Of a stretch of DNA of 23,172 nt, positions 217 through 22,360 are shown in pieces (positions within the stretch are counted from its first letter, which is position 1; each line of letters begins with the position of its first letter). The stretch is taken from contig JBGTFK010000070.1 of NCBI GenBank assembly GCA_041747305.1, positions 1-23,172 of the forward strand, read 5' to 3'. A program made the translations under genes and the position numbers. Under the pieces are notes generated by a model that was not told where the DNA came from, did no database searches, and worked only from the letters and a program-made list of their open reading frames with translations. The stretch is from Candidatus Nitrosocosmicus sp. (GTDB taxonomy: Archaea > Thermoproteota > Nitrososphaeria > Nitrososphaerales > Nitrososphaeraceae).

Positions 217-270
217 GGTCAAATTTGTTTCACATACCACCGAACCAGCTACCTATATGTAGTAACTAAC
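217..270 (+). repeat. Cassette-boundary repeat, subfamily A, copy A1 (GGTCAAATTTGTTTCACATACCACCGAACC...TAGTAAC)
   Basis: Near-identical to 2179-2230 over the first ~30 nt. Shares the core CCACCGAACC (237-246) and the downstream TAGTAAC with the B copies. Contains the 8-bp palindrome CAAATTTG. Confidence 0.85.
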
Positions 271-373
271 TTGCTCAAAATAACTTACCCCACTAAAAGA
301 ATTATTTAGATAAATATTAGCCTATTACAAGGCCTTTCATGATTTCAGTAGATAATAATATGTAGAAATAGGA

Positions 374-1305
374 TTGGAAAGGGTGGCTGCGATACTATCG
401 GATGTTGATGGAACTCTATGTCCTACATCTAGTATAAACTATAATTACAAGAGTTCCGATTTTATTCCACGCTCAATCGAAGATATACTCTATGAGATTT
501 CTTTAACTATCCCAATAGTTATTATAACAAGCAAAGACTTTGATTTCATTTATCCAAAAACTAAAAAATTTGCAAAAATATTGTCTTGTATTTTAGGTTT
601 AGAAATGTTTGTTTTAGATGATAGACAACAAATTAATTATAATAAAAACATTTTAAATGAAAATAAAAAAATATCTACAGCAGATGTCGCTATCAAAGAT
701 AGGATTTCACGTTTTGACCATGAAATGCTATCAATCAACTCTTATATGTTAAATGAAATTACCGCCTATCTTGAAAAAAACTATCACACAATGAATGTTG
801 AAAAAAAGTTTCTAAAGTGAGAAGAAAATCTCCTAGGCGGAATTACGCTGGATTGGAGACATAATTCTAATTGGATGGTTAATAAAGAGAAATAAAAAGA
901 GATTGTCAAAGAATCAGTATATAATATATTAAATAGTTCAACAAAAAGAAGAATGCAGTATATCCAAAGAAAATCAAGTTTTCATACTCAGCATCTTTTT
1001 ATCCAAGAATATTCTACTCATCCTTTCATTGATGTTTGTGTTACCAAATTAAATAATGGTGGTGCATTTGACTCTGTTGTTTCCAAACCCTATGAAATAA
1101 TGGATATCAAAGACAAATAACATACCTGGGTGATTCTGAAACCGATGACCCTGCCTTTAGAAAAGCGTCTATTTCAATTGGAGTAAATTCAGATAATAGA
1201 CTAAACCTTACCTTGGATTGCACCCATTCCATAAAGTTTGAGAATTTGACTATTTTTTTAAGAAGACTGTTGATAATGACTTTGATTTCTCAGAATCATT
1301 GTTAA
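374..1305 (+). pseudogene. HAD-IIB-type phosphatase (trehalose/sugar-phosphate phosphatase-like), fragmented
   Basis: ORF 374-820 (TTG start) begins MERVAAILSDVDGTL, which is HAD motif I (DxDGT). After its stop, homology continues in other frames: ...HPFIDVCVTKLNNGGAFDSV... and ...TYLGDSETDDPAF... (HAD motif IV, GDxxxD), ending at TAA 1303-1305. At least two frame breaks or stops. Confidence 0.6.
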
Positions 1306-1362
1306 ATTTTTGAATTCCAGATATAAGAAAAGATAAGTAGAATATGAAATCTATTAACAGTC

Positions 1363-1740
1363 GTGAAAGGAATAGAGTTTGTTTTATTGGCAGCCGGAGC
1401 AATTTTAGGTGCTTATGTCAGATATAAAATCAACTCTTTTCCTTTGATATTAGGAATAATAGGTTCAAACGTATTGATTGTAAATATAATAGGTAGTTTT
1501 ATTCTGGGTATTTTCTCTGTTTTATTGGTTAACTGGAACCTAGATCAAAGATATTCTTTTCTAATCGCTATTGGATTCTGCGGTTCCTTAACCACGATGT
1601 CTTCATTTGCTCTAGAAAACATAGTAATGATAGAAAATAAACAAATTCTAAGTATGATGATTAATACAATAGCCAATGTGGGCTTATCCTTTTTGGCGCT
1701 ATATGGTGGCAGAATCTTAATAATTCAATTATTACAGTAA
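1363..1740 (+). CDS. crcB: Fluoride ion channel CrcB/FluC
   Basis: 125 aa, GTG start, four hydrophobic helices. Carries the CrcB signatures GAILGAYVRY, NIIGSFILG and GFCGSLTTMSSF. Confidence 0.9.
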   Translation: MKGIEFVLLAAGAILGAYVRYKINSFPLILGIIGSNVLIVNIIGSFILGIFSVLLVNWNLDQRYSFLIAIGFCGSLTTMSSFALENIVMIENKQILSMMINTIANVGLSFLALYGGRILIIQLLQ

Positions 1741-1752
1741 TAATTTTAGAAT

Positions 1753-2067
1753 ATGATCCTGAAACAAATGATCTGCTTAAACATTCGCATAAAGAAAAAT
1801 GACAATGTAAATGGAAAAAGACTGGAGAAAACTATTATTGAATTTTTGATGAAGGCAAAGGTATTGGGCGCTATAGTATGGCTAGGTGTTGACGGATTTG
1901 GAAGAAGAGGCAAGTCAACAGTTCATTTGGAGGGTTTAATGATAAATCAACCTATGATGATAGAAACAATAGATGAGGAAGAAAAAATACAACCATTGTT
2001 ATTACCGTTAAAACAAATGATAGGCAATAACGGCTTTATTACTATTCATAGGGTGCAGGGTGTCTAA
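1753..2067 (+). CDS. DUF190 (PII-like) protein, the usual partner of crcB
   Basis: 104 aa, starts 13 nt after crcB. Pattern ...GAIVWLGVDGFGRRGKSTVH...QPMMIETIDEEEKIQPLL... fits the DUF190 family, which commonly neighbours crcB. Confidence 0.75.
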   Translation: MILKQMICLNIRIKKNDNVNGKRLEKTIIEFLMKAKVLGAIVWLGVDGFGRRGKSTVHLEGLMINQPMMIETIDEEEKIQPLLLPLKQMIGNNGFITIHRVQGV

Positions 2068-2178
2068 TTGTTATTCTTCGTGGTCAAAATTGAAGGCAAA
2101 TTCTAAACAAATAAAACTAATATAAACCCGTCAATTTGAAATTGCCTTCCTTAATATATCATTTGGGTATCAATAAGA

Positions 2179-2230
2179 GGTCAAATTTGTTTCACATGCC
2201 ACCGAAATCGATGATGATTTTAGTAACGCC
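2179..2230 (+). repeat. Cassette-boundary repeat, subfamily A, copy A2
   Basis: GGTCAAATTTGTTTCACATGCCACCGAAATCGATGATGATTTTAGTAACGCC. Core at 2199-2207. Same orientation as all other copies. Confidence 0.85.
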
Positions 2231-2486
2231 TTTAGTACACATTTAGAGATAATGTATTATTTATTATTCAAGTCTTTATTAAAATAATATGGGTATACAT
2301 CTTAATTTGACCTTATAGCGCATATTATGTTATCTGTCTATACAGGCAATAATCTCTTAAACAAGTTAAAATCGGTGATACTAGCGAGAATAATGATGAC
2401 AATAAAATAGAAATCGTCACAAATTATATGATGTTAATCTCAAGTAATGTATATCTCATTAAAAGATAATCCGAATAATAAAACGA

Positions 2487-2891
2487 TCATTTTGACATAA
2501 CAACCAGGAAATTTGTGGATGGAACATTACTTGAAAACCCTATTGTTTCAAATGTAATAACATCATCTATTTCGTAACCATCTTTCTTTACCTCATCTAC
2601 GGCCATCCACACTAAATCAGTAAATTGAGAACTAAGAGCCACAGTTTTAGGACTTTCAAACAGTACATCAATAGCATTCACACAAGTAGTTCCTAAACCA
2701 TAACATTGTTCAAAATCCTTATTTTCAAGAAAAAAAGTTGTGAAATTGATCGGATTGTTTAATATGTTCATTGCTGAGGTTGTATTTTTTGTAGTGCTTT
2801 CTCTAAGGTAGGAGTAAGAAGATGAGAAGGTCGAACTTACTAAAATAAATCCTACTCCTAGAATTACAAATACCAAGAATGTTTTTACCAT
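2487..2891 (-). CDS. Hypothetical secreted or membrane-anchored protein
   Basis: 134-aa ORF with N-terminal hydrophobic signal/anchor MVKTFLVFVILGVGFILVSS. No family recognised. Confidence 0.6.
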   Translation of the reverse strand: MVKTFLVFVILGVGFILVSSTFSSSYSYLRESTTKNTTSAMNILNNPINFTTFFLENKDFEQCYGLGTTCVNAIDVLFESPKTVALSSQFTDLVWMAVDEVKKDGYEIDDVITFETIGFSSNVPSTNFLVVMSK

Positions 2892-3195
2892 ATTTGTTTA
2901 TTAAAAGTAAAAGTATATTAAATATTCATAAAATTAATTTGTCTCGAGAGGAAAATAATATTACTATTTAATTATCATCCTTTGTGTATTTACTTAAATC
3001 TAACAGTAAATGATGTGGACCATAAAAATTGCAACTTCACAAGATAAAGTTTGAGTAATGGTAGATTTGACAACCAAATCACGGATACCGTAACTAATAA
3101 CATACATGAGGAAATATTAAATTAAAGTTATCGAAACAATGTGCTATATAGGTGATTATGCGATGAAAATAGATCAGGTTTATGTCTAACCTCTT

Positions 3196-3247
3196 CCACA
3201 GGGAGAATATCCACACCTCGTTTTTCACGTAAATTTTTCATAGTGAG
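3196..3247 (+). repeat. Degenerate B-like copy of the cassette-boundary repeat
   Basis: GAGAATATCCACACCTCGTTTTTCACGTAAATTTTTCATAGTGAG aligns by eye with GAGGATATCCACATCATTTCCACCAAACACGATAGTATTAATGGTAACG (copy B2). Same orientation. Clearly more diverged than the other copies. Confidence 0.45.
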
Positions 3248-3651
3248 TGATGAGGGTATATCTGATCAAAATGTAATAGATTAAAACTTCCAATGGGACC
3301 TAATTATTATCGTATATAGAAGATGCGTAAAAAAATAAAGTAAGTGCCGTTACAAAAGATAAGACAGTAAGTAAAAGATTATTCTATGGTATAGACCGGT
3401 AGAATTAGAAAAGGATTTTTTTGAAATAAAAGTCATCTAGTAGATACAAGAAGAATTGAAACGATATACAAAGTTTAACTTAAATAGAGATTATAATCAT
3501 AAACGACAGAAAATGACTACTTGCGTGTTGAATTTGTATAGTTAGAAATCCAAAAATAAATAAAATAGTGGACTGATAGGGAGTTAAATCATTAAAAAAT
3601 ATAATTGTATTTAATATTTCTAGAGTCCGTCTAAACTAAATCAAAATAAGT

Positions 3652-4134
3652 TTACATAGAAGAATCGATCTCCGACTTGTTGGACATAACGCCACAATCA
3701 TCAATATTACTAGTGTTTGATACAGTGTTGTTATTATTGGTTGAATTTAATAAGGTCGACAATTGGCTGTTAATTGGTGGCAATTCTGGTTCAAATTGAT
3801 TAGTTGTAGATGGTTCTGCTGGCAGTGGTGGCAATTCTGAAGATTCATGATAGACACTAGGCGAGGTCTGTTTCTGTTTCTCAAATATAATGATATCTAG
3901 GATTTTATTAATGATTGTTTTATGATATTGTACTTAGAAACAATATTACTAATTGATTTAACTATAGAATTAGTCTCTTGTTGTAATGTATTAGCCTGAT
4001 CTTGAGATTCGAATACCATTGTTGCTCTAACATTGCCATCAATACCAGGTGATGAAACAAATCACATCGCGCTAATCGCAAAAATTGCAAATTTTATCCT
4101 TCGTTATAAGATTGATAAAAACAACAATTATCAT
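3652..4134 (-). pseudogene. Decayed small secreted protein gene (Pro/Asn/Thr-rich tail)
   Basis: The minus strand reads in three successive frames: MIIVVFINL... then ...KFAIFAISAM*FVSSPGIDGNVRATMVFESQDQANTLQQ... then ...EKQKQTSPSVYHESSELPPLPAEPSTTNQFEPELPPINSQ...NNNNTVSN... Only the last 60 codons form an intact ORF (3652-3834). Confidence 0.3.
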
Positions 4135-4267
4135 CAATACATCAGATAAATAAAGTTTCCTCCACGATAAAGAACTTTATGAAATAAAACTTTAGAATCT
4201 AAGAAAATAATATTATTGGCATATCTTATCTCGAATACCTCTGCTTAAGGAAAGACATGTATATTAT

Positions 4268-4452
4268 GGCTCTGTTACCTTAAGGAATTTTTAAAAATGA
4301 TTTCCAAAATCTCATGTCCAGCCAGATAACCTCTTTTGGAACAAAAGTTCGTAAATTATGCTAAAAATACAAGAAATCTCCTTGTAATTGATCTATATAA
4401 TATAAAATCGGTTTGGATTTATACTGGGTTAAACGCTTAAGTTAACAGAACT
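4268..4452. mobile_element. MITE-like non-autonomous derivative of the local IS6-family element
   Basis: Left end GGCTCTGTTACCTTAAGG (4268-4285) against the reverse complement of the right end, AGTTCTGTTAACTTAAGCG (4434-4452): 14/18 by hand. Both resemble the IS6 terminal repeat GGCTCTGTTCACTTAACGG at 8464. No ORF inside and no clear target duplication. Confidence 0.45.
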
Positions 4453-4839
4453 TAGAAATATGTCAGTGACACAAATAAAGGGCGAAATTTTTTCCCTTAA
4501 CTTTACAGAATCTTTATTTGGTATATTATATTAGTTGAGATCATCCGCCTATTCGAATATCGTATCAAATATCGATCTTACTTTCAATTTCATTAGTAAT
4601 GATATCAATGATTTTTCCACATTTCCAGAGTGCTAAATAATTTATCTTATCTTTAGGAGGACTAGTGAGTTGTTTTTCAAATTATTTTCCAATATAGTTC
4701 AAAATATTTTAACTACTATCACCAAATGATCCGTATATCTTAGAAATTACTTAACAAAAAAATAACTGTTTTTTTACATAAACTTACAACAGATCATAGA
4801 ATAAAAACTGGATTGAAGTAATCGTAAAACAAAATCTTC

Positions 4840-5565
4840 TCAAGTCATTGGTATGGATGGAGTAGTAATTGTGTTGTTAAGCTGTATGTTTTCATCCGTG
4901 TTCGTATTATTTGGAACCTGAGGAAGTTTGGTATCATTAATCGTTGGAGGAACCTGAGGAAGGTCGGATTGAATATCACTACCTAGTCCAGAGTTTAGTA
5001 TTGAATTTATTTTATTCGAGTCTATACTCACCGATTTAATAATGTAATCACCTACTGGCAGGAACTGATCAAATATGTTACTTGATGTAATAAATAACAT
5101 TCCTGTCTGGATCCCATCGGAATTAACAGATATAACAGTTAACACATTTCGTTGGTCTTCACCTTCTAGTTTAAAAGTCGATATATATGAACATGCTAGA
5201 GCATCATTCAAAGTATATGTACCGCATTCAATTGGTTGTAATAACTCATAGTTATCAAAATTCTCATACGAAGGTAATTGAGATGCTGCTGCGTCATTTG
5301 AATTAAAATGAAGTGAATTATCTATTAACAATTCCGTCCATGCAAAAGATGTTCCTCTGTCAGCATATCGAAATATGTAATCTATAGGAGCTAATTTTTC
5401 ATTCTCTGGCATTCTCTCTGGAAACCAGTTCGAGGGTATTTGAATCGAGAACAAACCATCCCCCTCATCAAAAGTCTTCCAAGTAATCTGAGCATATGAT
5501 TGAGTTGGTAGTATACAAATGATCAATGCTGTAATAATGATAAAAATCAGAGATTTAAATAACAT
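4840..5565 (-). CDS. Secreted protein, paralog of 7246-8415 (possible PsbP-like fold; family not certain)
   Basis: 241 aa. Signal peptide MLFKSLIFIIITALIICILPTQSYAQ. The following ~165 aa align throughout with the N-terminal half of the 392-aa protein (ITWKTFDEGDGLFSIQIPSNWFPE vs VTWKTFSEEKGLFSIEIPSNWYPE, and so on). Pro/Asn/Thr-rich tail. Confidence 0.85.
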   Translation of the reverse strand: MLFKSLIFIIITALIICILPTQSYAQITWKTFDEGDGLFSIQIPSNWFPERMPENEKLAPIDYIFRYADRGTSFAWTELLIDNSLHFNSNDAAASQLPSYENFDNYELLQPIECGTYTLNDALACSYISTFKLEGEDQRNVLTVISVNSDGIQTGMLFITSSNIFDQFLPVGDYIIKSVSIDSNKINSILNSGLGSDIQSDLPQVPPTINDTKLPQVPNNTNTDENIQLNNTITTPSIPMT

Positions 5566-5586
5566 TAAACAGAATATAGTGATTTA

Positions 5587-5596
5587 CTATATAAAC
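5587..5596 (-). promoter_or_regulatory. TATA box for the 241-aa gene (leaderless or very short leader)
   Basis: The minus strand reads GTTTATATAG, centred about 26 nt upstream of the ATG at 5565. Confidence 0.5.
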
Positions 5597-5656
5597 TAAT
5601 TGAGCATGAGTAAATTATCACTACAAATAAATCTATTCCATTAGCATTTCATTTTT

Positions 5657-5698
5657 GGTAAAAACGGATGCTACCCACAAAACCAGCAAGTTATAGTT
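5657..5698 (+). repeat. Degenerate subfamily-A copy (A3) of the cassette-boundary repeat
   Basis: GGTAAAAACGGATGCTACCCACAAAACCAGCAAGTTATAGTT against A1 GGTCAAATTTGTTTCACATACCACCGAACCAGCTACCTATATGTAGT. Shared GGT.AAA...ACC.AC..AACCAGC...TATA.GT. Same orientation. Confidence 0.5.
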
Positions 5699-6253
5699 CC
5701 TCATCCATTTTAATTTGTATTTTGTACTTGATTGGATTAATTGATTCACCATTAAATTCTATCAGAAAACACATGCACCTGATAAAGGTAGACCGTATAT
5801 TTATCTAACACTACAATCTTGAAATGCTTAACAGTCAGAATTTGGTTTAGCCTGGCTTGATTCAAACAGGTCATCGAATTACTTTCTGACCTGCCAATTA
5901 ACAGAAAGGTAGCGAGAGCTTGTGGACTGTCATTATCATACTTACTAATCAGAAGGACATTGGCAGGAGGTTAAACCCAATAAGATGCAAGTATGCTATA
6001 ACGAAGATAATCGGCACGTTTTAGATAATATTTTTTTTATAATGTTGGATGAATTTGATGATATAAACAGAATATTATTTGATATTCCTGAAATCGCAGA
6101 TTTGTATTTTTTTCAGACAAGAAAAATATCTGTATCCAAAATCAATCTTATAAATGGAGCAATTTTTTAATTCGTATCATCGCAAAAATTTGCATTGATT
6201 TTCATATAATTGAAAAAAAATTTTGGAAGATACTTAACCGATTAACATATTAA

Positions 6254-7212
6254 GAGCCTATCCCCAAATTCGATAGTATTATAGCTGGTTTTCGCTAATC
6301 CTGAACCGTGACCTGCATCCATAAGATGGATAAAGTAAATGGTAGAAAGAATAATCGTACCATCATAACCATTCCAGATAAATTATGCCGTGAAATTAGG
6401 AATGTCTTATCCAAAGAGAAACCATTTAAAACTTTGGGTCGACCGGTTATACCCTACAGAAAAGTACTTGATAGTTTTCTCTACGTTCTTCGAACGGGAT
6501 GTCAGTGGAAAATGCTTCCCAAAGATTGTGGTTCAGGTTCCACCTCTGTCAGAGAAGATTCTAAGAATGGGTCAGTTTGGATGACTTTAAAAAGATATGG
6601 GTTATATTATTAAAAATATATGATATCAACTGGACTTGGCGATCGCTTGACTCCATATCCATAAGGTCGCCTTTAGAGGGGGAGATGACTGGAAATAATA
6701 CTCCGAACAGGAGAAAACTAGTCACAAAAAGACATATTCTGACAGATAAGAAAGGCATTCCACTATCGATTGTCATACCGTCTGCCAGTACTCATGAAGT
6801 TAAACTGGTAATAGAAGTGGTAGATAATTCAGTCATCAAACAACCACTATCATCATATAAGCCTAAACAAGAAAGAACGAAAAGAAAACTGCAACACCTG
6901 TGTCTTGATAAAGCACATAATTCCAAACAAGAAGAATAGGAACTAATCAAACGAGGATATGTCCAGTATATTCCTTATAGGGGAAGAAAAAGTAAAAAAT
7001 ATGAGGATGAGGAGATCAAGAGTAAAACAAAATCCAACCTAAACCGAAAAAAATGTTCTGCAAAAAGATGAGTTGTAGAAAGGACAAACTCTTGGCATAA
7101 CCGATTCCGAAAATTTTTATCTGATACGAGAAGAAGATGGAGAACTATTTTGGAATGGTACCGTTCTCCTGTTGTATAATAATTTGTAGAAGAATAATGT
7201 TGGGATAGGCTC
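6254..7212 (+). mobile_element. IS5-family insertion sequence, decayed
   Basis: Terminal inverted repeats GAGCCTATCCCCAA (6254-6267) and the reverse complement of 7199-7212, GAGCCTATCCCAAC. Flanked by direct TAA (6251-6253 and 7213-7215). Encodes an IS5-type DDE transposase. Confidence 0.85.
6308..7208 (+). pseudogene. IS5-family (DDE_Tnp_1-like) transposase, disrupted
   Basis: ORF A carries ...GRPVIPYRKVLDSFLYVLRTGCQWKMLPKDCGSGST.... A frame change follows to ...FKKIWVILLKIYD...TGNNTPNRRKLVTKRHILTDKKGIPLSIVIPSASTHEVKL...HLCLDKAHNSKQEE. Then stops and shifts through ...R*VVERTNSWHNRFRK... (TGA where W is expected) and ...YEKKMENYFGMVPFSCCIIICRRI. Confidence 0.85.
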
Positions 7213-7245
7213 TAAGCATAAAATGATATAGAGAAAAAAATAAGA

Positions 7246-8415
7246 TTACTGTATTGCAGTTGTTATTCTAAATGAATTGACCATGTTGTGAAAAACTGGT
7301 AAAGAGTCATTAAATTCATCCAGTGTTCCGCCATATGTTATTACATAAACCATGTCATTCACTATTGTCCATACTTGCATGTTTTTTAACTCCACTCCAT
7401 TTACAAAGTACGTATAAATTATTTGGTTTGCAGGATAAGCAGATAACGTGGAATTGGATGTTTCAAGTAAATTCATACTTGGAAATTGAGTGCGCAATAC
7501 ATTCAGTGCAGAATTGCTATATTCTTTTAAACTAGTATCTGATGAAACTACTTCGGTTGTTATAGCCATGGATTCTGGAGCTTCATCGGTAGCCGAGAGT
7601 CTTGGTGAATATAATAAAAGAGACGGAGGTGAAAGACTTTCCTCCTTGGTCCAATTAGATGGATATTCTAATGAAAATCCAAGGTTTGGGTTTTCATAAA
7701 CTATGGTTTCAGATCCATTTGCTTCATTTGGTGACTGTAGTATCTGGGGAATGTCCAAACCACTGGAATCGTTTGATCCCTTTTGGACAGATGTTAGCGG
7801 AATCTGAGGAATTTCAGACTGCATGTCTAATGTAGATTGGTCATTCAACATTTCATTGACGTTATTTGAGTCTATTTTTATTGAATTAATAGCATACTCA
7901 CCCACGGGTAGAAAGGAGTCATAAATATCACTTGAGGTTATGAAACTCACATAGGTTTGAATTCCGTTTGGAGAGGTAGATATAATATCTAGTATGTTTC
8001 TTCTTTCTTCACCTTCCAACTGTTGGCTTGATAAAAAGGAACAGGCGGGTGAGTCATTTAATATATATGTATTACAATCTATTGGTTTCAATAAAATAAA
8101 ATCATCAAATTGTTGATATTCTGATATATAAGATTCCGCAACAGCTCGAGCATCTGAATATATCGATTTGCTAATCAGCAATTCAATCCAAGCGAATGAA
8201 TTACCTCTGTCAGCATAACGGAATAAATAGTCTATCGGTGTCAATTTCTGGGATTCGGGTACCACTTCAGGATACCAGTTTGAAGGTATTTCTATAGAGA
8301 ACAAACCCTTCTCTTCACTAAAGGTTTTCCACGTTACCTGTCCAAATGATTGATTAACAACCGCCATCGAAACAATCAATACAGAAAGCATAAAAAGAAA
8401 GAATTTAAATAACAT
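7246..8415 (-). CDS. Secreted two-domain protein, paralog of 4840-5565 with an extra C-terminal domain
   Basis: The ORF track starts at TTG 8424. ATG 8415 instead gives MLFKFFLFML..., matching the paralog's MLFKSLIFII, and places the TATA box at the usual distance. The C-terminal ~170 aa (YENPNLGFSLEYPSNWTKEE...) are absent from the paralog. Confidence 0.85.
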   Translation of the reverse strand: MLFKFFLFMLSVLIVSMAVVNQSFGQVTWKTFSEEKGLFSIEIPSNWYPEVVPESQKLTPIDYLFRYADRGNSFAWIELLISKSIYSDARAVAESYISEYQQFDDFILLKPIDCNTYILNDSPACSFLSSQQLEGEERRNILDIISTSPNGIQTYVSFITSSDIYDSFLPVGEYAINSIKIDSNNVNEMLNDQSTLDMQSEIPQIPLTSVQKGSNDSSGLDIPQILQSPNEANGSETIVYENPNLGFSLEYPSNWTKEESLSPPSLLLYSPRLSATDEAPESMAITTEVVSSDTSLKEYSNSALNVLRTQFPSMNLLETSNSTLSAYPANQIIYTYFVNGVELKNMQVWTIVNDMVYVITYGGTLDEFNDSLPVFHNMVNSFRITTAIQ

Positions 8416-8436
8416 CAATTTCAAAAATACTTCTTT

Positions 8437-8446: not shown

Positions 8447-8471
8447 ATTGCCAGATTTTTTATGGCTCTGT

Positions 8472-14540: not shown

Positions 14541-14552
14541 CAATAGACTACA

Positions 14553-14565
14553 TTTTTCTTTTTTT
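14553..14565 (+). terminator. Oligo-T tract (archaeal-type terminator candidate)
   Basis: TTTTTCTTTTTTT lies 13 nt after the stop at 14540. Confidence 0.35.
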
Positions 14566-14916
14566 AAGTTTCTAATCTTGAAAACAAAATATTTTGTTCT
14601 AAACCATAAGCAAGGATCTGTCATTAAATTAAGTTTTTAAACAAATCTAATTGAAATCAAGATTCTAATATAGATCCCACAAATTCTACTTTAACGATCC
14701 ATCACTTGTCTAAATCCCAACTATACTTCTTTTTTTAAAACTGGTCATTCTGTATACTATTTAAATTAACATCAATAAAATTCACTAAGAGACGTAATAG
14801 AATTGGAATTTGTTTTATTCACAATCTCTTTCTTTCCTAGCCCATCAGACAACCCTATAACAGGGCATTAATAATTAGACAATCTCTTCAAAATCTTTTA
14901 AGAACTACGATAAACT

Positions 14917-14934
14917 AGTATGAAATTTCATACT
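14917..14934. repeat. Perfect 18-bp palindrome AGTATGAAATTTCATACT
   Basis: Self-complementary with no loop. Lies in intergenic DNA about 90 nt downstream of the minus-strand gene ending at 15025. Confidence 0.7.
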
Positions 14935-15024
14935 CATTCCACTGACTCATTCCACATATGAAAGATAATCCGGAAGAACCAGAATTAAAATATTCTATTC
15001 AAAGAATGATTCTAAATATCTGTT

Positions 15025-15285
15025 TTAATTAATGGTATTTGTAGTAGTAGATGTAGAATTATCGTCTGCAGGACTATTGGTATTTGTAGTGGTCGTTGTA
15101 GTGAATTCGCTACCATTGCCTACTTGACCATTATTTGTACTGTTTGACATATCAGTTGCAGAGTCAAAGGTATTTTCTATTTGGTCATTTACTGATTCAT
15201 TTATTATATCAAAAGGGCTCTGTGCATAAGCTGTCTGTAGTAAAAATACAAACAACATGGGCAAAAGTATTAAAATAATATTCAT
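15025..15285 (-). CDS. Small secreted Thr/Asn-rich protein
   Basis: 86 aa. Signal peptide MNIILILLPMLFVFLLQTAYAQ, acidic middle, TTTTTNTNS...STSTTTN tail. Confidence 0.6.
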   Translation of the reverse strand: MNIILILLPMLFVFLLQTAYAQSPFDIINESVNDQIENTFDSATDMSNSTNNGQVGNGSEFTTTTTTNTNSPADDNSTSTTTNTIN

Positions 15286-15356
15286 AGTATATTATAGATT
15301 TTATTGCTTATATAGATGATTAACCAGTTATTGCCTAATACTTTTATCTTCAAGCC

Positions 15357-15521
15357 TTATCCTGTATAAAAGGATTCTAATGCTAATTCAATAGATTCTT
15401 TCATATTTGCTTCAAGTTCTTCAACTGTTTCACCATCGCTTATTGCAGCAGGTATTTCAAGGCATTGGACACTATATCCTCCTTCCGGTGCTTTCTGTAT
15501 TAAATTGTAAATTATGTCAAT
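15357..15521 (-). pseudogene. HicB-like (UPF0150) antitoxin-type domain without a canonical start codon
   Basis: The minus strand reads IDIIYNLIQKAPEGGYSVQCLEIPAAISDGETVEELEANMKESIELALESFYTG*. This resembles the HicB N-domain pattern (..GGY.....lPg....G.T.EEa..n.keai.l.le). The frame opens right after a TAG and contains no ATG, GTG or TTG. No HicA partner was seen. Confidence 0.35.
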
Positions 15522-15671
15522 CTACTTTATGTATATAAACAGCTCAGTATTTTTAATCTATTCTAAATTAATAGTTTGAACACAATTAGATTAAATTTTT
15601 TATTTTCTAATCAGATCATTCAGTATAGTTTGTTATCTTTGTAGATAGATTTATTCTTCTTTTTTATGTGA

Positions 15672-15728
15672 ACCCATGTGGATATCCAAACGATTTCCAC
15701 CGAACCAGATATCTATTTTAGTAACGAC
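15672..15728 (+). repeat. Cassette-boundary repeat, subfamily B, copy B1
   Basis: CCCATGTGGATATCCAAACGATTTCCACCGAACCAGATATCTATTTTAGTAACGAC. 10-bp palindrome TGGATATCCA at 15679-15688. Core CCACCGAACC at 15697-15706. Confidence 0.9.
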
Positions 15729-16001
15729 ATTAATATCAATCAGGATATCTTGTGTATTAAATTTCTAAGTTATTAAAAAGAAAATTAGGTCGGTTTGCGT
15801 TCTGATAATTTGGCATACTTGAACCTGATGCATGTTTTATTCGTATTTCAACAACGGTTATCCTCAGGATAATACACTGCTGTCCTGTTCTGTAGATTGT
15901 TCTTAAGGGATTGAAGAGTAAAAGTACATATTTCCTTTATCTGATTGTCCTACGTTACTACGAGTTTTCACGAACCTGGATGTATATATTGTTATTAAGA
16001 C

Positions 16002-16300
16002 CTAATGATGATTCTGCGGTTCGACAAAATTGACAAGCAGTTCTAGTTAAATTCTACTTGAACTCTTTTTTAGATCAGGGGAAAAAATAGATATCGCAAG
16101 TGATACTGTTTAGAGGCAAAGTATTGTCATATATATCAAATCCCATGCACGCTTGTGGCTGGCTCTTGGTGAAATATTTCTTGTTTTAATGTCCTGATAG
16201 TATCGGCTATAAATCTGGGATTTTCCTCCATTTTCAGTTCATAATTCGAATGCACTTTTGTATTTTGTATCTATGGTCAAAAATTTGCAAAAATAACACA
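16002..16300 (-). pseudogene. Heavily decayed IS6-family transposase relic
   Basis: Minus-strand fragments in shifting frames are EENPRFIADTIRTLKQ, PQACMGFDIYDN...CDIYFFP and LLVNFVEPQNHH*. They parallel ERNMLIAERFIADLVRN, PQACRFLKLDHH...FDDYFPC and NWLNLFVDHHNK of the 8472-8783 copy. Confidence 0.45.
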
Positions 16301-16441
16301 AACGTTAAATACTCATTACTATAATTGCGTATTACTAATGAGACAGATTAAAAAAACCTACTTTATTTATAAACAGAACGATGTAGGAACTGAACATAAA
16401 GAAATTATTAGGAGAGATCAAAACAAGGTGGATTTAATTAA

Positions 16442-17899
16442 ATGATTCACAGAATAAGATCCTCCATTAATACCTATGGATTATTATCCGCTTTTTCCAT
16501 CCCGATGTTTGTTTTGATGATGATGTTTGCGTTTGAATCTTCAGACCATGACGCCCTTGCCCAAAATCAATCCTCTCCTTTGGCTGGGATGAACTTTTCA
16601 AAGCCTATAGATGTATATAGTAAGGATGGAGTTTTGAAAATTACACTCGTTGCAGAATACAAGATAGGTAAAGTTGATAACGAGACAATTACTGCAATGG
16701 TCTATAATGGTTCGCTTCCAGGGCCCGCTTACCATGTTTATCCCGGAGATAGAGTTGAAATTGATTTAGTAAATAATCTCAATGAATCTACCAACCTCCA
16801 TTTTCATGGACTCCATGTATCTCCTGGAAATAACTCGGACAACGTACTTCTTGATGTTGAGCCAGGTATGACACAGCATTATGTTCTCGATATTCCGAAA
16901 GATCACGAACCAGGTACGGATTGGTATCATTCACATTTGCATAAACTTTCTTATGGACAAGTTTCGGCAGGTCTGTCTGGTATATTTATTGTTGAAGGGT
17001 TAGAAAAGTTATTACCAGAATCCTTACAGAATATCACACAACATACCATTGCCATGAGAGATTTTCCATTTGACAATCTATTCGTTACTACAGGTGATTT
17101 GAGTAATACGATGACAATGCATGAACGCCTAACTGTTAACGGAGAAGTCAATCCAGTTATCAACATTAAATCAGGTGAGACTCAGCTTTGGCGTCTTGCA
17201 AATATTGGTCCTGAGAATGAATTCATAGTCCAACTGCCTGGCAATACATTCCATGTTATAGCAGAAGATGGAAGCCCAGTTTGGAACGTGTGGAATAATG
17301 ATACTCTTTTCATGCCTTCTGGAAAACGTTTTGACGTATTGGTGACTGCCAACGGTAGCGGGTCTATTCCATTAGGAGCTGGTAATAGCTCATTTGTTGC
17401 ACCATATGATTTACACATTGCGACTGTAAATATACAAGGTAACCAAACAGATGTAAAACCTGCAGATATCCTTCCAACAAGCTTAATCCCAGAGAGAGAC
17501 CTCAATCTTGCAAACGTCACTAATTATAGAGTCCTCAATTTTTCATCAAATGATAGGGATTGGATATACTCGATAAATAACACGACCTTTGATCATAACA
17601 GAGTAGATATAACGGCAAAGCTTGGAACTGTAGAGGAGTGGAAATTAGTAAACCTTGATAAAGTCTCATCTGGCAATATTCATCCATTCCATATTCATGT
17701 AAATGATTTTCAGGTAATGTCAGTTAACGGAAAACCTTATGATGCTCACGGATACCAAGATACCGTTATTATACCCACGGGAGGTGAAGTAGTTATTAGA
17801 ATACCATTTGATGATTTTGTGGGAAAAACTGTCTATCACTGCCACTTGATGTTTCACGGGGACTTTGGAATGATGGGTATCCTTGAGATCGTTAAATAG
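16442..17899 (+). CDS. Multicopper oxidase (laccase-like), secreted or membrane-anchored
   Basis: 485 aa. All four copper-ligand motifs are present: HFHGLH, WYHSHLH, HPFHIHVNDF and HCHLMFHGDFGMMG. N-terminal hydrophobic signal. Confidence 0.95.
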   Translation: MIHRIRSSINTYGLLSAFSIPMFVLMMMFAFESSDHDALAQNQSSPLAGMNFSKPIDVYSKDGVLKITLVAEYKIGKVDNETITAMVYNGSLPGPAYHVYPGDRVEIDLVNNLNESTNLHFHGLHVSPGNNSDNVLLDVEPGMTQHYVLDIPKDHEPGTDWYHSHLHKLSYGQVSAGLSGIFIVEGLEKLLPESLQNITQHTIAMRDFPFDNLFVTTGDLSNTMTMHERLTVNGEVNPVINIKSGETQLWRLANIGPENEFIVQLPGNTFHVIAEDGSPVWNVWNNDTLFMPSGKRFDVLVTANGSGSIPLGAGNSSFVAPYDLHIATVNIQGNQTDVKPADILPTSLIPERDLNLANVTNYRVLNFSSNDRDWIYSINNTTFDHNRVDITAKLGTVEEWKLVNLDKVSSGNIHPFHIHVNDFQVMSVNGKPYDAHGYQDTVIIPTGGEVVIRIPFDDFVGKTVYHCHLMFHGDFGMMGILEIVK

Positions 17900-17912
17900 G
17901 TGATGATGTGAA

Positions 17913-18485
17913 TTGGAGATTAGTAAAATGTTTAATACAAATATATCCCCAAAAGGAAAAGCAATGACTTTGTTTGTTGTATTAACCTTTGCCGTAGCCG
18001 GACTTACAGCAGTAACTTTCATTTCAGAGCCATTTGCGGTAGCGCAAAGCCCAGGAATTGACCCAAATGATTGTTTTAGGTCAAACGTTACAATAGATAC
18101 TTGTCCTTCACGCTCAAATATACAAAGCCTCAATGACACAATGGATTGTTTTAAGAAAATTGAAGAAACCAAGGTAGGCACTAGCGAAATTCAGAATTAT
18201 ACAAAAAGTGTGCAGAACTTTATTTCCTTAATACCTACTGACAACAAAATAACAGTAATAAATGAAAATATAGCAGGAGGTCGCGGTCCAGTAACTGATA
18301 TGGAGGGCGTATGGGATTTAATAAAAAATGAAAATATGACTCGACACGATAGACAATTGGTATTGGACGAAGTTAATATTCTCTTGGCCAACGCCAAACC
18401 CGGGTTTACCAAAATACAAAACGATGAGCTAAGTTTGTGTATAACTACTGAACTCAATTCTTTAGGCCCTACACTTAACTATTAG
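17913..18485 (+). CDS. Hypothetical secreted Cys-containing protein, probably co-transcribed with the MCO
   Basis: 190 aa (TTG start; ATG at codon 6), starting 13 nt after the MCO stop. Signal/anchor MTLFVVLTFAVAGLTAVTFISEPFAVAQS. Four Cys. Confidence 0.6.
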   Translation: MEISKMFNTNISPKGKAMTLFVVLTFAVAGLTAVTFISEPFAVAQSPGIDPNDCFRSNVTIDTCPSRSNIQSLNDTMDCFKKIEETKVGTSEIQNYTKSVQNFISLIPTDNKITVINENIAGGRGPVTDMEGVWDLIKNENMTRHDRQLVLDEVNILLANAKPGFTKIQNDELSLCITTELNSLGPTLNY

Positions 18486-18493
18486 GTCCATCA

Positions 18494-18504
18494 TTTTTTC
18501 TTTT
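18494..18504 (+). terminator. Oligo-T tract after the MCO operon
   Basis: TTTTTTCTTTT begins 9 nt after the stop at 18485. Confidence 0.35.
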
Positions 18505-18812
18505 GTCAAGACAATAGTCTACAAAGTTTTCCCTTTTTCATTTATTCATTTTTGCCGCAAATCTCTTGATTCAAACCACATATTGATTAATTGACATGTA
18601 ATAGGAAATAATCCCGGTTCGCTTACCTAAATGGATTCCAAGGCTTGTTGTAGGATTACGGCTTGATAGTTTGGAAAGATTGTTTTTAATTATTCTGTCT
18701 CCTAGAGTATAAAGTATTATCTAATTAGCGAAAAAAGAAAAGAAAACTAGCTGATTTGAACAAAGCCACTCTAAACATTTTTGATCAAAAGTGCCCATCT
18801 TATACTTTCCTT

Positions 18813-18873
18813 TAATAGACTCATGAGGATATCCACATCATTTCCACCAAACACGATAGTATTAATGGTAACG
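18813..18873 (+). repeat. Cassette-boundary repeat, subfamily B, copy B2 (diverged)
   Basis: TAATAGACTCATGAGGATATCCACATCATTTCCACCAAACACGATAGTATTAATGGTAACG. GGATATCC at 18827-18834. Core CCACCAAAC at 18844-18852. The upstream AATAG(A/G)CTCAT is shared with B4. Confidence 0.8.
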
Positions 18874-18944
18874 TTAGTATTGAAGATTTGTGGATAAATA
18901 ATTTATACTAAAATTATGTATTTTTATCTCAAAGATAACTCTAA

Positions 18945-19583
18945 CTAGGGTCCTTCCCAGCTAAATGGTATATGCTTGCTAGACCTGCCCTTTCTCTTCC
19001 ACTTAAAACTCATTGTATCTACCTCATCATTCAAAGATATTCCCCATGTAGCAACGGCACCTGGACCAACCTCACTTCCAGGCGGATTTATTGTTTGAAC
19101 TCTTTTTCCTGGTGGAGTCATTGGGCCTCCTAATGCTACTGCTTTCGCAAGAACTTTTCCCGGAATCTCGGCACTCCACTGGCTCAAATCCTCAGAAATT
19201 TCAAATCTTATGGGGGCAAAATCAATTCCCTTGATTTCCCCTATCAACTTGGCAAATTCTGACATAAATCCGCCGGCCTTCCCGCTAAAAATCATCTGAA
19301 GCGCATCTCTCTGTTTTTCTTCAGCGCGCTCATCGAAAAATAAACCCAGATTTACCTTTGTATTTCCTGCCCAAATATTTCCTTCAAACGCTCCTATAGC
19401 TAATGCATTCAATCCATCCAATGATGTATCACCGTAATGTCCTTTGTTGATATGATACGCCAATATGCCCTCGCAATCTCCAAAGGTAGGTTCTTGAGCA
19501 AATTCACAAGGACATGGTATTTTACATTTACATACATCAAACCAATCTCCAGAAGCTTTCCAAGAGGGAATGCTATCCGTCAT
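18945..19583 (-). CDS. DUF1326 family protein (copy 2)
   Basis: 212 aa. N-terminal Cys cluster DVCKCKIPCPCEF and the motif GHYGDTSLDGL match the DUF1326 pattern (CNCD.GCPCQF ... G.FGD..LDG). Confidence 0.85.
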   Translation of the reverse strand: MTDSIPSWKASGDWFDVCKCKIPCPCEFAQEPTFGDCEGILAYHINKGHYGDTSLDGLNALAIGAFEGNIWAGNTKVNLGLFFDERAEEKQRDALQMIFSGKAGGFMSEFAKLIGEIKGIDFAPIRFEISEDLSQWSAEIPGKVLAKAVALGGPMTPPGKRVQTINPPGSEVGPGAVATWGISLNDEVDTMSFKWKRKGRSSKHIPFSWEGP

Positions 19584-19698
19584 GCAATTAGATAAATATA
19601 CTAAAATATAAAATTACCTTACTTTATAGGAAATTTTCCAGTATTCAAATATGATTATGAAAATAATGCAAATATTCTTTATTTAATTACTATTCTGG

Positions 19699-20670
19699 TT
19701 AACTCATATCCATATCCATATCCATATCCATATTGTTATCGCTAATTTTATCCTCGTCCTTATCTTGGTTAGAATCTTCCATCACCATACTGTTCATCTC
19801 ATTGGGAGAATTATGCATTCCGCCTTCTTCTATTATAATTGGTATTATTCCTGTTATTGAAAGAAAACCTGCAATTACAAACACAATACCTGCTCCTCTT
19901 GCAATCCAGATTCCTTTAGACCAGACTTTCTCTGCAAAAATAATTGCTGCAAACATTCCCATCCATAATATGTTCATCCATCCTAAAGCAATCATGAGTA
20001 AAAAATAAGGCCAACAACATCCAAGACAGTACATACCGTGATACAGACCCATCTTTAACCCGTCTTTCATTTGGTTTCCTTTCCATCTTTTTATAAAAAA
20101 TGATAAGGGAGATTCGCAATAACCCAAACATCTTTCCTTCAATGGGCTAAATTGGTAAATTCCAGACACAATGAGCAAAATTCCAGACACAATCGCAAAA
20201 TCTTTTACGCTATATCCTATAAACAGATTATTCATAATTATAGACCAAAACACTAGCAGCATAACACCTGTTAATGCCCAGACCAAAAGGTATGTTCCTA
20301 CAAATCCTAATGTTTTAATAGCTCTTTTAGAAAGAAGTGCGAATGATCTGGAATGTTGTCTATTATCTCTTTCTTCTAAATTATCTGTATGCTGATTGAA
20401 TTTACTTACTAGAGATAAATTATCCTTTTTGTTATTATTATTATTTTGATCGCTAGAGATAATGCGATTGTATAATAACACCATTGGAATCATTGCTGGA
20501 AACATCATGGCTGCCATCCCGACGGTCCAACTTATTGTAAATATAGTAACTGCTATTGGATTTAGTGTCATCATGGCCTCCATCATGTCTGGCTGTTCTA
20601 TGGAAAAAAGCCATGTAATGACTGAGATAGAAAGCAAGGATAAGAGTATTATCTTTTGAGATTTATCCAA
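19699..20670 (-). CDS. DUF2182 family predicted metal-binding integral membrane protein
   Basis: 323 aa, polytopic. Family motifs WTVGMAAMMFPAMIPMV, KERCLGYCESPLSFF and GMYCLGCCWPYFLLM. The Met/Asp-rich C-terminus ends NNMDMDMDMDMS. Confidence 0.85.
   Translation of the reverse strand: MDKSQKIILLSLLSISVITWLFSIEQPDMMEAMMTLNPIAVTIFTISWTVGMAAMMFPAMIPMVLLYNRIISSDQNNNNNKKDNLSLVSKFNQHTDNLEERDNRQHSRSFALLSKRAIKTLGFVGTYLLVWALTGVMLLVFWSIIMNNLFIGYSVKDFAIVSGILLIVSGIYQFSPLKERCLGYCESPLSFFIKRWKGNQMKDGLKMGLYHGMYCLGCCWPYFLLMIALGWMNILWMGMFAAIIFAEKVWSKGIWIARGAGIVFVIAGFLSITGIIPIIIEEGGMHNSPNEMNSMVMEDSNQDKDEDKISDNNMDMDMDMDMS
19705..19733. repeat. Hexanucleotide tandem repeat (CATATC)x4.8 encoding the (MD)n tail
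   Basis: CATATCCATATCCATATCCATATCCATAT lies at the 3' end of the DUF2182 gene. Confidence 0.9.
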
Positions 20671-20724
20671 TGAAATAACGCTCTTAAACGGCTAGTGGAT
20701 TTTTATGGTAAAATAGGGTTAACT

Positions 20725-21363
20725 TTAAGGTCCCTTGTATTCTATTACAGAGTAAAGCGCATTCTTACCCGAATGGTCATAATTGAGGTGGGGAGTTGTA
20801 ATTCTCATTACTTTGGTTTTTGCCGCTTCTGCTAGTTTCCAGATAAAACCTTTGGGTAATTGTATCTTTGTATCTTGTTCTTCGCCTGTAACCGGGTTAA
20901 CAAAGCTTTCTGACTGCACATCTATGATGCCCGGAACGGTAAAGCCACTTTTTTTGCCGTCTATATTTACTTGGATGTCTACAAACTGTGGTTCTAGAAA
21001 AAACTTTATTGTTCCTGCAAATAAGGTAAATGGACCTTCACCTTTAGCTTGACCTGAAAAAATAGATATGATGGAGTTTCTTTGTTCATTACTTGTATTT
21101 TTTGATATGAATAATTGGGCAGTGCCATTTCCTTCATGAATTGCTTTGGGCCAAGAGAAAGCACAAATTACATCAATTCCGTCAAGACTTGTATCGCCAT
21201 AGTTTCCTGAGCGAATGTGAAACAATACTAATGCTCTGCAGAAACCGTTGGATGGAAATCCATTGAAATTACACGGACATCCATAATCACAATTACAGGT
21301 TTCAACATAGTCTGCTTTAAAGGTCCAAGCAGGAATTTGATTTAAAGTAGAAGTCATATACAC
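20725..21363 (-). CDS. DUF1326 family protein (copy 1)
   Basis: 212 aa (GTG 21363; ATG 21357 gives MTSTLNQIPAW, which parallels the paralog's MTDSIPSW). Motifs CNCDYGCPCNFNGFPSNGFCRA and GNYGDTSLDGI. Confidence 0.85.
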   Translation of the reverse strand: MYMTSTLNQIPAWTFKADYVETCNCDYGCPCNFNGFPSNGFCRALVLFHIRSGNYGDTSLDGIDVICAFSWPKAIHEGNGTAQLFISKNTSNEQRNSIISIFSGQAKGEGPFTLFAGTIKFFLEPQFVDIQVNIDGKKSGFTVPGIIDVQSESFVNPVTGEEQDTKIQLPKGFIWKLAEAAKTKVMRITTPHLNYDHSGKNALYSVIEYKGP

Positions 21364-21380
21364 TTACTCTAATCGAAATA

Positions 21381-21392
21381 TATTAATTTTTA
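21381..21392 (-). promoter_or_regulatory. TATA-like box for the DUF1326-DUF2182-DUF1326 operon
   Basis: The minus strand reads ATTAATATATTT about 25-30 nt upstream of the start codon. Confidence 0.4.
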
Positions 21393-21490
21393 CAGTACTA
21401 TCATATACATTTGATTTTCGGTAAATAAGATTGTCTGAACTATTTTAAATGACAGTTATTTTAACATCAACCATTTGTTTTTGATACCGA

Positions 21491-21540
21491 CCTCTGTGGA
21501 TATCCAAACGATTTCCACCGAACCCGCTAAATAGAAGAGT
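21491..21540 (+). repeat. Cassette-boundary repeat, subfamily B, copy B3
   Basis: CCTCTGTGGATATCCAAACGATTTCCACCGAACCCGCTAAATAGAAGAGT. The 30-nt stretch GTGGATATCCAAACGATTTCCACCGAACC is identical to B1. Palindrome at 21497-21506 and core at 21515-21524. Confidence 0.9.
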
Positions 21541-21660
21541 CTGACCATGAGAATAATTATTTTTTATTTGTTACCATCGGACTTATCTTCCGGTTGATCT
21601 ATTAAAGCGCAGTTAGATTTACTCAGATATTTGATAATCGTAATTCGGTTACAAAGAAAA

Positions 21661-21671
21661 TTTAATTAATA
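21661..21671 (+). promoter_or_regulatory. TATA-like box for the 153-aa gene
   Basis: TTTAATTAATA is centred about 26 nt upstream of ATG 21692. Confidence 0.4.
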
Positions 21672-21691
21672 TCCTCTAATTAGAGAGGACA

Positions 21692-22153
21692 ATGAAAGAA
21701 ATCCTTTCCGGTGTATTCACTATTCTTGTTTTCATACTAGCAGTACCTTTTGCTTATGGACAACCATTTGACACTGCCACAAATCTTGATACAACTACAA
21801 ATCAAACCACGATGACTACTACTACTCCTGAAGCTACTATAGGTAAAAGTGAAAATCTTACAATAACCGATCTTAGATTCCGTGCAGAATCAAATCAAAT
21901 AACAGGAACAGTCACAAATAATTCTACAAATGAGCAATCTTCTATATCCATATATGCAGTCCTTTTTGACAAAGATGATTCTTTTCTTGGAATTGCTCAA
22001 GGAAGACCGTTAGTTGAATCACTTCCCCCAGCTGATAATTCTCCATTCTCAATAGATATGTTCTCAGGATTTGAACTATATACAATGCCTGAGGAAGTAA
22101 AGGGTATTGACCACTATACAATCTATGTAAGAGGATATGAGCCGCTTTTCTAA
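21692..22153 (+). CDS. Secreted protein with Thr-rich linker and a small beta-sandwich-like domain (FxLYD-like pattern; uncertain)
   Basis: 153 aa. Signal peptide MKEILSGVFTILVFILAVPFAYGQ, TTTNQTTMTTTTPE linker, then ITGTVTNNSTNEQSSISIYAVLFDKDDSFLG. Confidence 0.65.
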   Translation: MKEILSGVFTILVFILAVPFAYGQPFDTATNLDTTTNQTTMTTTTPEATIGKSENLTITDLRFRAESNQITGTVTNNSTNEQSSISIYAVLFDKDDSFLGIAQGRPLVESLPPADNSPFSIDMFSGFELYTMPEEVKGIDHYTIYVRGYEPLF

Positions 22154-22301
22154 TGTAGTATAAGTTTACAAATAAGAAAAATACTTGGTATATCCGACCG
22201 AGTGTCAAGTCTATATTATTTTTTGCTGCAAGTACATTGCAATACCATATTGTATTTTAATCTGTTCGGCGAAAATTGATTATAGTTTCAAATCTTGTCT
22301 T

Positions 22302-22360
22302 AAATAGGCTCATTTGGATATCCAAACGATTTCGACCGAACGAGATCTTATTTGTAATGA
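22302..22360 (+). repeat. Cassette-boundary repeat, subfamily B, copy B4
   Basis: AAATAGGCTCATTTGGATATCCAAACGATTTCGACCGAACGAGATCTTATTTGTAATGA. Perfect 12-bp palindrome TTGGATATCCAA at 22314-22325. Core CGACCGAAC at 22333-22341. Confidence 0.85.

Follow-up and report, generated by a model that had tools for sequence, protein, structure and literature searches.

What are the short, co-oriented repeats that lie between the genes of a 23,172-nucleotide (nt) stretch of Candidatus Nitrosocosmicus sp. (assembly GCA_041747305.1, contig JBGTFK010000070.1, positions 1 to 23,172), and how did they come to be there? This whole stretch, which we call the window, has a G+C content of ~32%, and its nearest relatives are soil Nitrososphaerales, mainly Nitrosocosmicus. 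The original prediction described a family of eight repeats that divide the region into a cassette array. Here we present evidence that the repeats are probably junctions that arose when a tyrosine integrase with its target at the 3' end of tRNA-Lys(CTT) recombined DNA site-specifically at its attachment site, and that the window forms part of an array that is integron-like in its working without being an integron and whose cassettes are delimited by such sites. This reading is carried by the identity between the repeat core and the tRNA end, the adjacency of integrase and tRNA genes in relatives, the strict co-orientation of the repeats, the shuffling of cassettes between strains and the position of the breakpoints at the core.

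Repeat searches in the window recovered four copies of ~55 nt that have GGATATCCAAACGATTTCCACCGAAC in common and two further copies that share AGGTCAAATTTGTTTCACATRCCACCGAA. With up to two mismatches allowed, the core TTTCCACCGAAC occurs eight times in the window, compared with 1.14 occurrences expected by shuffling and no shuffle out of 100 that reached eight, and the 26-mer GGATATCCAAACGATTTCCACCGAAC occurs three times where none is expected. Six copies are backed by profiles built from related copies, and all six lie on the + strand and are intergenic. Copies 1 and 2 have the 'GGTCAAATTTGTTTCACAT' left part and copies 3-6 a palindromic one. The copies are as follows.

210-272, + strand: copy 1, with left part GGTCAAATTTGTTTCACATA, core CCACCGAAC at 237-245 and right part CAGCTACCTATATGTAGTAAC; profile expectation values (E) 1e-13 (left part with core) and 4e-10 (core with right part)
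2176-2235, + strand: copy 2, which shares the left part of copy 1 and whose core, CCACCGAAA at 2199-2207, is decayed; profile E 6e-10
14911-14950, + strand: decayed seventh copy, with AAACTAGTATGAAATTTCATACTCATT and the core-like CCACTGACT at 14939-14947; profile E 0.22
15669-15734, + strand: copy 3, whose left part is the palindromic one, with core at 15697-15705 and right part CAGATATCTATTTTAGTAACGAC; profile E 2e-13 and 5e-11
18816-18880, + strand: copy 4, with core CCACCAAAC at 18844-18852; profile E 7.5e-8; located between convergent gene 3' ends in the map of open reading frames (ORFs)
21488-21541, + strand: copy 5, with core at 21515-21523; profile E 1e-11
22305-22360, + strand: copy 6, with core CGACCGAAC at 22333-22341; profile E 3e-7

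The proposed family is thus real, and six of its eight members are strongly supported. The two degenerate members are not: the best piece near ~3196 (3203-3216) scores at chance level (E ~1-5), the one at ~5657 has no profile match, and the decayed copy at 14911 had been missed. The placement of the copies on one strand and outside coding sequences was borne out for the six supported copies, and the elements listed as common to them (the core, an AT-rich stretch and AGTAAC) are correct. Copy 1 is 90-96% identical to copies in the loci L135, L089, L090 and L123, and copy 2 is 97% identical to copy 1 across 29 nt (repeat family D16). The decayed copy at 14911-14950 shows 87% identity to L090 across 30 nt (BLAST) and, by eye, ~82% identity across 38 nt to a third left-part variant, AAACTAGTGTGAAATTTCACACTCGTC-CCACCGAAC, found in L146, L174 and L189. 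It reads AGTATGAAATTTCATACT where the variant has AGTGTGAAATTTCACACT, so that the left arm has changed from G to A and the right arm correspondingly from C to T, and the palindrome is kept. Together with this copy, copies 2, 4 and 6 have decayed cores.

The invariant core, CCACCGAACC(CGC) (also written CCACCGAACCCGC), is identical to the last 13 bases of tRNA-Lys(CTT), which ARAGORN detects, ending in ...GTGGGTCCGAATCCCACCGAACCCGC, in five related contigs (L207, L208, L009, L210 and L211). It comprises the 3' strand of the T-stem and, after it, that of the acceptor stem, and the left part that begins GGTCAAATTTGT... resembles the tRNA segment GAGGTTAAAATGT directly upstream of the T-arm. In L009, five co-oriented repeat copies stand directly after the tRNA-Lys(CTT) gene. 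In L207, L208, L210 and L211, N. agrestis included, the same tRNA gene is followed by a CCGCATAGTATACGGGTCTATATAC leader, an integrase gene, and genes for MCM and PolB; a PriX gene is also present in the elements of L208 and L210. This integrase element lies at positions 10001-18822 of L207 and 10001-18605 of L208. A search for a recombinase at an end of the array had been suggested, and it is in these relatives, beside the tRNA, that one of apparently tyrosine type is found. Two such tRNA-Lys(CTT)-integrase loci are present in the N. agrestis sample, on separate contigs. Moreover, the leader and an often truncated integrase gene follow ordinary repeat copies in L169, L172, L150, L163, L196 and L209, and in L209 cassettes stand before the integrase. 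By tblastn, integrase remnants were found in six loci only. The array-internal integrases of L150, L163, L172 and L196 are truncated at differing points (64, 75 or 134 codons) and that of L169 has one frameshift; those adjoining an intact tRNA are full length. In L209, PriX lies upstream of the integrase on the opposite strand.

The tRNA-adjacent recombinase has 446 amino acids (aa), and full-length homologues range from 396 to 449 aa. The protein matches the Pfam model Phage_integrase (E 5e-5) and the NCBIfam model of archaeal XerA (E 1.7e-5), and its best fold matches are XerA (4a8e) and XerH. Across 26 homologues, residues R181, K209, R300, H301, W322 and Y332 do not vary; a C-terminal zinc ribbon follows them. 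Judged from its sequence and predicted fold, the integrase appears to be a divergent tyrosine recombinase and is likely to be the enzyme that acts at the repeats.

The repeat is not confined to the window. In a degenerate-pattern search, Nitrosocosmicus agrestis and four Nitrososphaerales metagenome-assembled genomes had one match each, and the profile then revealed more co-oriented copies on the same contigs. A metagenome scan added 120 contigs, 74 of them with true copies and mostly of low G+C; in viral contigs, all 72 matches to the 15-nt core were chance matches and none passed the profile at E <= 1e-3. The repeat accounts for the breaks that assemblies of these genomes show in this region. 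Across Nitrososphaerales contigs, copies are co-oriented in all 34 multi-copy loci and in 60 of 60 non-redundant adjacent pairs, so the uniform orientation seen in the window extends to relatives. Spacing between repeats has a median of 1455 nt and lies mostly between 0.75 and 3.7 kb, and 35 of 59 cassettes hold a single gene. As had been noted for the window, gene orientation varies while repeat orientation does not: 57 cassette genes run in the direction of the repeat and 47 in the opposite direction. The cargo is diverse, with 116 Pfam families across 91 proteins and no family in more than two.

Comparison of related strains supports the expectation that synteny would break exactly at the repeat. 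When homologous cassettes were compared, the neighbour across the repeat was non-homologous in 46 of 92 comparisons, and the polarity of the cassette relative to the repeat was kept in 103 pairs and not in six. For example, the cassette with a 153-aa gene (window 21515-22364) is followed in L157, ~1.2 kb on, by a homologue of the HAD-like cassette, from which it is 21 kb apart in the window. In junction alignments, similarity begins or ends at the core. Over 40 nt on each side of the core, copies for which the upstream cassette alone is shared have an identity of 0.73 on the left and 0.58 on the right, those for which the downstream cassette alone is shared have 0.60 on the left and 0.73 on the right, and the background values are 0.61 and 0.59, respectively. 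Identity therefore switches at the core, which assigns the left part to the upstream cassette and the right part to its downstream neighbour, and places the exchange in the core. These observations agree with the predicted division of the region into cassettes and suggest that the dividing repeats are recombination-site junctions.

The anatomy of the site was derived from 133 instances aligned on the core, in which CCACCGAAC(C) is invariant. The left part has a small set of conserved forms, the majority palindrome-bearing: CATGTGGATATCC(T/A)CATGATTT with variants such as GTGAAAATTCAC, and the further forms AGTGTGAAATTTCACACTCGTC, CTCACAGATCTGTGAG and GGTCAAATTTGTTTCACATA. The consensus holds an 18-bp palindrome, CATGTGGATATCCACATG. 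On the right, form A is CGCTACCTATTTATAGTAACGATAT, form B is CCGCATAGTATACGGAACTTAATC followed by a second core, with ~24 nt between the two cores, and form C is CCGCATAGTATACGGGTCTATATAC...; rarer forms also occur, and a TATA-like TATTTATAG lies within the conserved right part. Two cores ~24 nt apart with CCGCATAGTATACGGAACTTAATC, which we call an 'empty cassette', are present at L105 5634-5601, L184 1166-1199, L161 6233, L157 267-310 and ~20 other loci. The first half of this unit is the start of the integrase leader and the second half a T-arm-like partial tRNA, and the unit looks like the least that could be left of the integrase element, or like a miniature version derived from it.

Taken together, a mechanism can be proposed in which strand exchange would take place inside the core CCACCGAACC(CGC). 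The left 25-30 nt would represent the conserved 3' end of the upstream cassette, in a palindrome-bearing or tRNA-like form, and the right ~25 nt, usually CGCTACCTATTTATAGTAACGAT, the conserved 5' end of the downstream cassette. A circle carrying one site would insert into the tRNA site or into an existing junction and thereby give rise to two co-oriented junctions. Since each circle would carry a single polar site, all copies would point as the tRNA does, whatever the direction of the cargo, and cassettes with their own promoters would leave gene direction independent of the repeat. Most units measure 0.8-3 kb and hold one to three genes without an integrase. They would thus need to be moved in trans by the integrase of the larger element (integrase, MCM, PolB and sometimes PriX) at the same tRNA site. 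We infer that this integrase acts on the junctions, and does so in trans; the cassettes may still be mobile, and the array of the window would presumably be anchored at the tRNA-Lys(CTT) of its own genome.

Several results weigh against this interpretation. Neither a tRNA gene (tRNA scan) nor an integrase gene (tblastn included) was detected in the window, so that its link to the tRNA-Lys site would come through relatives, and in four of the five tRNA-bearing contigs the integrase element adjoins the tRNA with no array within 11 kb. The repeat was not found in the N. franklandus loci retrieved (L212-L214), which lie on short contigs, or on the long contigs with DUF1326 homologue loci of more distant Nitrososphaeraceae (L202-L206), and the system thus appears to be clade-restricted. 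In ~5% of homologous segments, the orientation with respect to the repeat is reversed. The sequence and fold matches of the integrase are weak and score below curated cut-offs (24.5 bits with the XerA/integron-integrase model, whose cut-off is 220; mean predicted local distance difference test score (pLDDT) of the model 70.6; best Foldseek E 0.036), and sequence searches of solved structures, with the single protein or with a profile, gave no recombinase match. In addition, homologous recombination between the 70-nt repeats could also shuffle cassettes. Such recombination is part of an account in which the repeats are inert scars: full-size integrase-bearing elements would have inserted serially at the tRNA and decayed by deletion to single genes, the junctions would no longer be substrates, and shuffling would be due to homologous recombination between scars. 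Truncated integrase pseudogenes inside arrays, the decayed cores of copies 2, 4 and 6 and of the copy at 14911, and the insertion sequences in the window are in line with this history, and tandem-integration islands with scattered partial tRNAs are known for tycheposons and for archaeal integrated elements. Unrelated elements should, however, have the tRNA-derived core alone in common, whereas here 25-30 nt per side are conserved despite unrelated cargo; the breakpoints are limited to the core although the flanks would be equally usable for homologous recombination; and the units are tightly sized, with a median of 1.46 kb and a single gene in 35 of 59. We regard decay to inert scars as unlikely, although it deserves to be taken seriously.

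A regulatory role fits the data far less well. The 18-bp palindrome of the consensus could be a dyad bound by a dimeric transcription factor, the four strongest window copies flank the multicopper oxidase and the DUF1326-PpoB2 operon, and Nitrososphaera viennensis has a known promoter motif for copper limitation, all of which would suit a copper or metal regulon with the repeat as its operator or promoter and shuffling as a by-product. Yet the cargo over all loci, with its 116 families, is not copper-specific, copies 2 and 4 lie at the 3' ends of convergent genes, gene orientations are mixed (57 and 47) and distances to the repeat vary, the published N. viennensis motif TTCSGSMTTTGWACYANT does not match the repeat, and the core is a tRNA end with an integrase gene after it, which makes such a role very improbable. 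To a canonical integron, or an attC cluster without its integrase, we give almost no credence, even though the co-oriented array with short, mostly single-gene cassettes and diverse cargo recalls one and canonical integrons do occur in archaeal metagenome-assembled genomes. As single-stranded DNA, the six window copies fold no better than shuffles on either strand (z -1.6 to +1.4), an inverted RYYYAAC...GTTRRRY pair is missing from the repeat, and the sites are conserved by sequence and not by structure; the recombinase is weakly XerA-like, no IntI was found, and genes are not co-oriented with the sites. The original prediction of a different recombination system is consistent with these results. 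The same fold energies argue against a small structured RNA gene or transcript motif, for which a hairpin-capable palindrome beside a conserved single-stranded stretch and the presence of a separate palindrome in each left-part variant could be cited. The Rfam scan of the window gave no match, palindrome covariation is not significant (79.6% of cells pair, compared with 78.6% after shuffling, and 89 of 500 shuffles reach the observed value) and synteny breaks within the element, and we consider this reading negligible. Two further candidates were dropped: an origin-recognition box, prompted by an 11/14 resemblance to the Sulfolobus mini-ORB and abandoned when the core proved to stem from a tRNA, and ends of an IS200/IS605 or repetitive extragenic palindromic (REP)-type single-strand transposon, as the core is tRNA-derived and no Y1 transposase lies nearby.

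With recombination at a tRNA-derived attachment site as the favoured interpretation, the array can be set beside known systems. In the pdif modules of Acinetobacter plasmids, short recombinase sites likewise mark off gene modules, any one of which can be met in differing contexts. The pdif sites are 28-bp Xer sites that alternate in orientation, whereas the array sites are all direct and tRNA-derived. The array of the window belongs to the broad class of tRNA-site integrative-element arrays, and tandem integrative-element islands at tRNA genes are its nearest counterpart. Tandem tyrosine-recombinase elements at archaeal tRNA genes (PMC6563490; reviewed in PMC8371274) resemble it in their tRNA 3'-end target, short site (median 17 bp for thaumarchaeal attachment sites; PMC6563490) and tRNA-adjacent integrase, and re-use of the site yields co-oriented direct repeats there as it does here. 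Moreover, the replication genes of the integrase element resemble those of ThaMY3-E2, a 98-kb element that carries MCM and PolB (PMC6563490), although the latter uses another tRNA. In contrast to these elements, the units described here are mostly 1-2 kb, lack integrase and replication genes and are numerous in each array, and their site flanks are conserved beyond the tRNA-derived core; most units consist of one non-integrase gene, unlike tandem tRNA elements, in which each unit has, or once had, an integrase of its own. Catalogued Nitrosocosmicus elements use tRNA-Lys(TTT) and tRNA-Arg(TCG), with attachment sequences that differ from the one described here (PMC6563490), and the tRNA-Lys(CTT) site is not among catalogued thaumarchaeal elements. 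Prochlorococcus tycheposon islands (bioRxiv 10.1101/2020.12.28.424599) are also tRNA-anchored, built by repeated integration and strewn with partial tRNAs and fragmented integrases. Tycheposons combine recombination and replication modules with niche cargo, and the likeness is architectural only: they are bacterial, probably use another recombinase lineage and, when mobile, each carry an integrase, whereas the repeating unit of the array is an integrase-less mini-cassette with conserved ends. Integrons, including archaeal ones (Ghaly et al., 2022; PMC9668308), are similar in that one recombinase, as proposed for the array, serves many small integrase-less cassettes with co-oriented sites, in their diverse cargo, often of unknown function, and in a cassette order that varies between strains. 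They differ in having the attC single-strand fold, IntI and an attI next to the integrase promoter; in the array, by contrast, genes run either way, presumably from their own promoters, and the sites are tRNA-derived and conserved by sequence.

How accessory genes are gained and exchanged is poorly understood in ammonia-oxidising archaea, which are key soil nitrifiers. The array points to a testable route, the swapping of single-gene cassettes at a tRNA-derived site, and copper-handling genes (the multicopper oxidase and the DUF1326-PpoB2 operon) are located in such cassettes. Were the cassettes indeed moved in trans, they would form a second cassette-capture system, evolved independently of integrons, and the repeat would serve as a simple sequence tag to mine the flexible gene pool from metagenomes. 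As a tentative proposal, towards which we remain slightly sceptical, ammonia oxidisers of the Nitrosocosmicus type may possess an independently evolved, integron-like capture platform in which one tyrosine recombinase, encoded on a self-replicating tRNA-Lys(CTT) element, moves integrase-less single-gene cassettes in trans. Such a platform would use a composite double-stranded site (cassette-end palindrome, 13-nt tRNA-derived core and cassette-start motif) and build arrays of more than 20 kb, with a large share of the flexible genome, copper-handling genes included, inside them.

The repeat copies divide the window into the following units, whose domain assignments are from Pfam.

273-2175: cassette 1, with a HAD-like ORF at 374-820, crcB at 1363-1740 and a DUF190 gene at 1753-2067
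2236-14910: composite large segment between copy 2 and the decayed copy
2487-2891, 4840-5565 and 7246-8424: secreted-protein genes within the composite segment
6308-6939: IS4/IS5-type transposase fragments in two overlapping frames, DUF4096 and then DDE_Tnp_1
8783-12175: insertion sequence of 3.4 kb with imperfect 64-nt terminal inverted repeats at 8784-8847 and 12086-12149 (pair I1)
8899-9354: gene for a DUF2299 protein of this insertion sequence, which also has three or four small ORFs
10175-11287: gene for its DDE (IS240-type) transposase with a SWIM zinc finger
12619-13533, - strand: beta-lactamase-family (serine hydrolase) gene, which matches the Pfam model only from position 68 on
14951-15668: small cassette bounded by the decayed copy and copy 3, with an 86-aa secreted-protein ORF at 15025-15285 (- strand)
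15735-18815: multicopper oxidase cassette, with the oxidase (Cu-oxidase domains) at 16442-17899 and a 190-aa partner ORF at 17913-18485
18881-21487: copper-chaperone cassette, with DUF1326 at 18945-19583, PpoB2/DUF2182 at 19699-20670 and DUF1326 at 20725-21363 (all three genes on the - strand)
21542-22304: secreted-protein cassette with one 153-aa gene at 21692-22153
22361-23172: last cassette, with a 205-aa gene at 22555-23172, which reaches the window end

Several of these units have homologues elsewhere. The homologue of the HAD-like region (window 289-909) stands after another cassette in L157 and L160, and in both loci another cassette follows the one with the 153-aa gene, which in L157 is also preceded by other sequence; in the alignments of the latter cassette with these loci, similarity begins ~4 nt past the core. 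Homologues of the 205-aa-gene cassette in L105 and L184 have other upstream neighbours. By exact protein look-up, crcB had no match and the 153-aa protein was found on one 2.4-kb contig only.

The large middle segment, which had been taken for a coherent unit, does not hold up as one, since the 13-kb stretch contains insertion sequences and at least one decayed junction; profiles detected no supported repeat copy within 2236-14910. The two-frame transposase at 6308-6939 is either the product of a programmed frameshift or a pseudogene, and homologous DNA in L130 and L116 is reversed with respect to the repeat, which is what one expects of an insertion sequence that moves on its own. The genes at 4840-5565 and 7246-8424 encode secreted-protein paralogues at a constant offset of 2850 nt, with 72-76% nucleotide identity in their N-terminal halves, and the longer one (7246-8424) has a PsbP-like domain at its end. 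L118 and L083 lack the 3.4-kb insertion sequence, so that the equivalents of window positions 8782 and 12176 are joined. The segment of ~500 nt that it splits (8463-8782 and 12176-12353) is reversed relative to the repeat in L118 and L093 and has the same orientation in L083, and it may represent the whole or one end of a small mobile element. The beta-lactamase-family gene is probably truncated, its N-terminus and signal peptide apparently gone.

The DUF1326-PpoB2-DUF1326 cassette also occurs in L159, L123, L144, L108 and L162 with differing neighbours, and the trio moves as a single cassette. Its PpoB2/DUF2182 homologue (19699-20670, - strand) has an Asn-rich insert and a C-terminal tail of Met-Asp repeats (MDMDMDMDMS), which may form a metal-binding extension.

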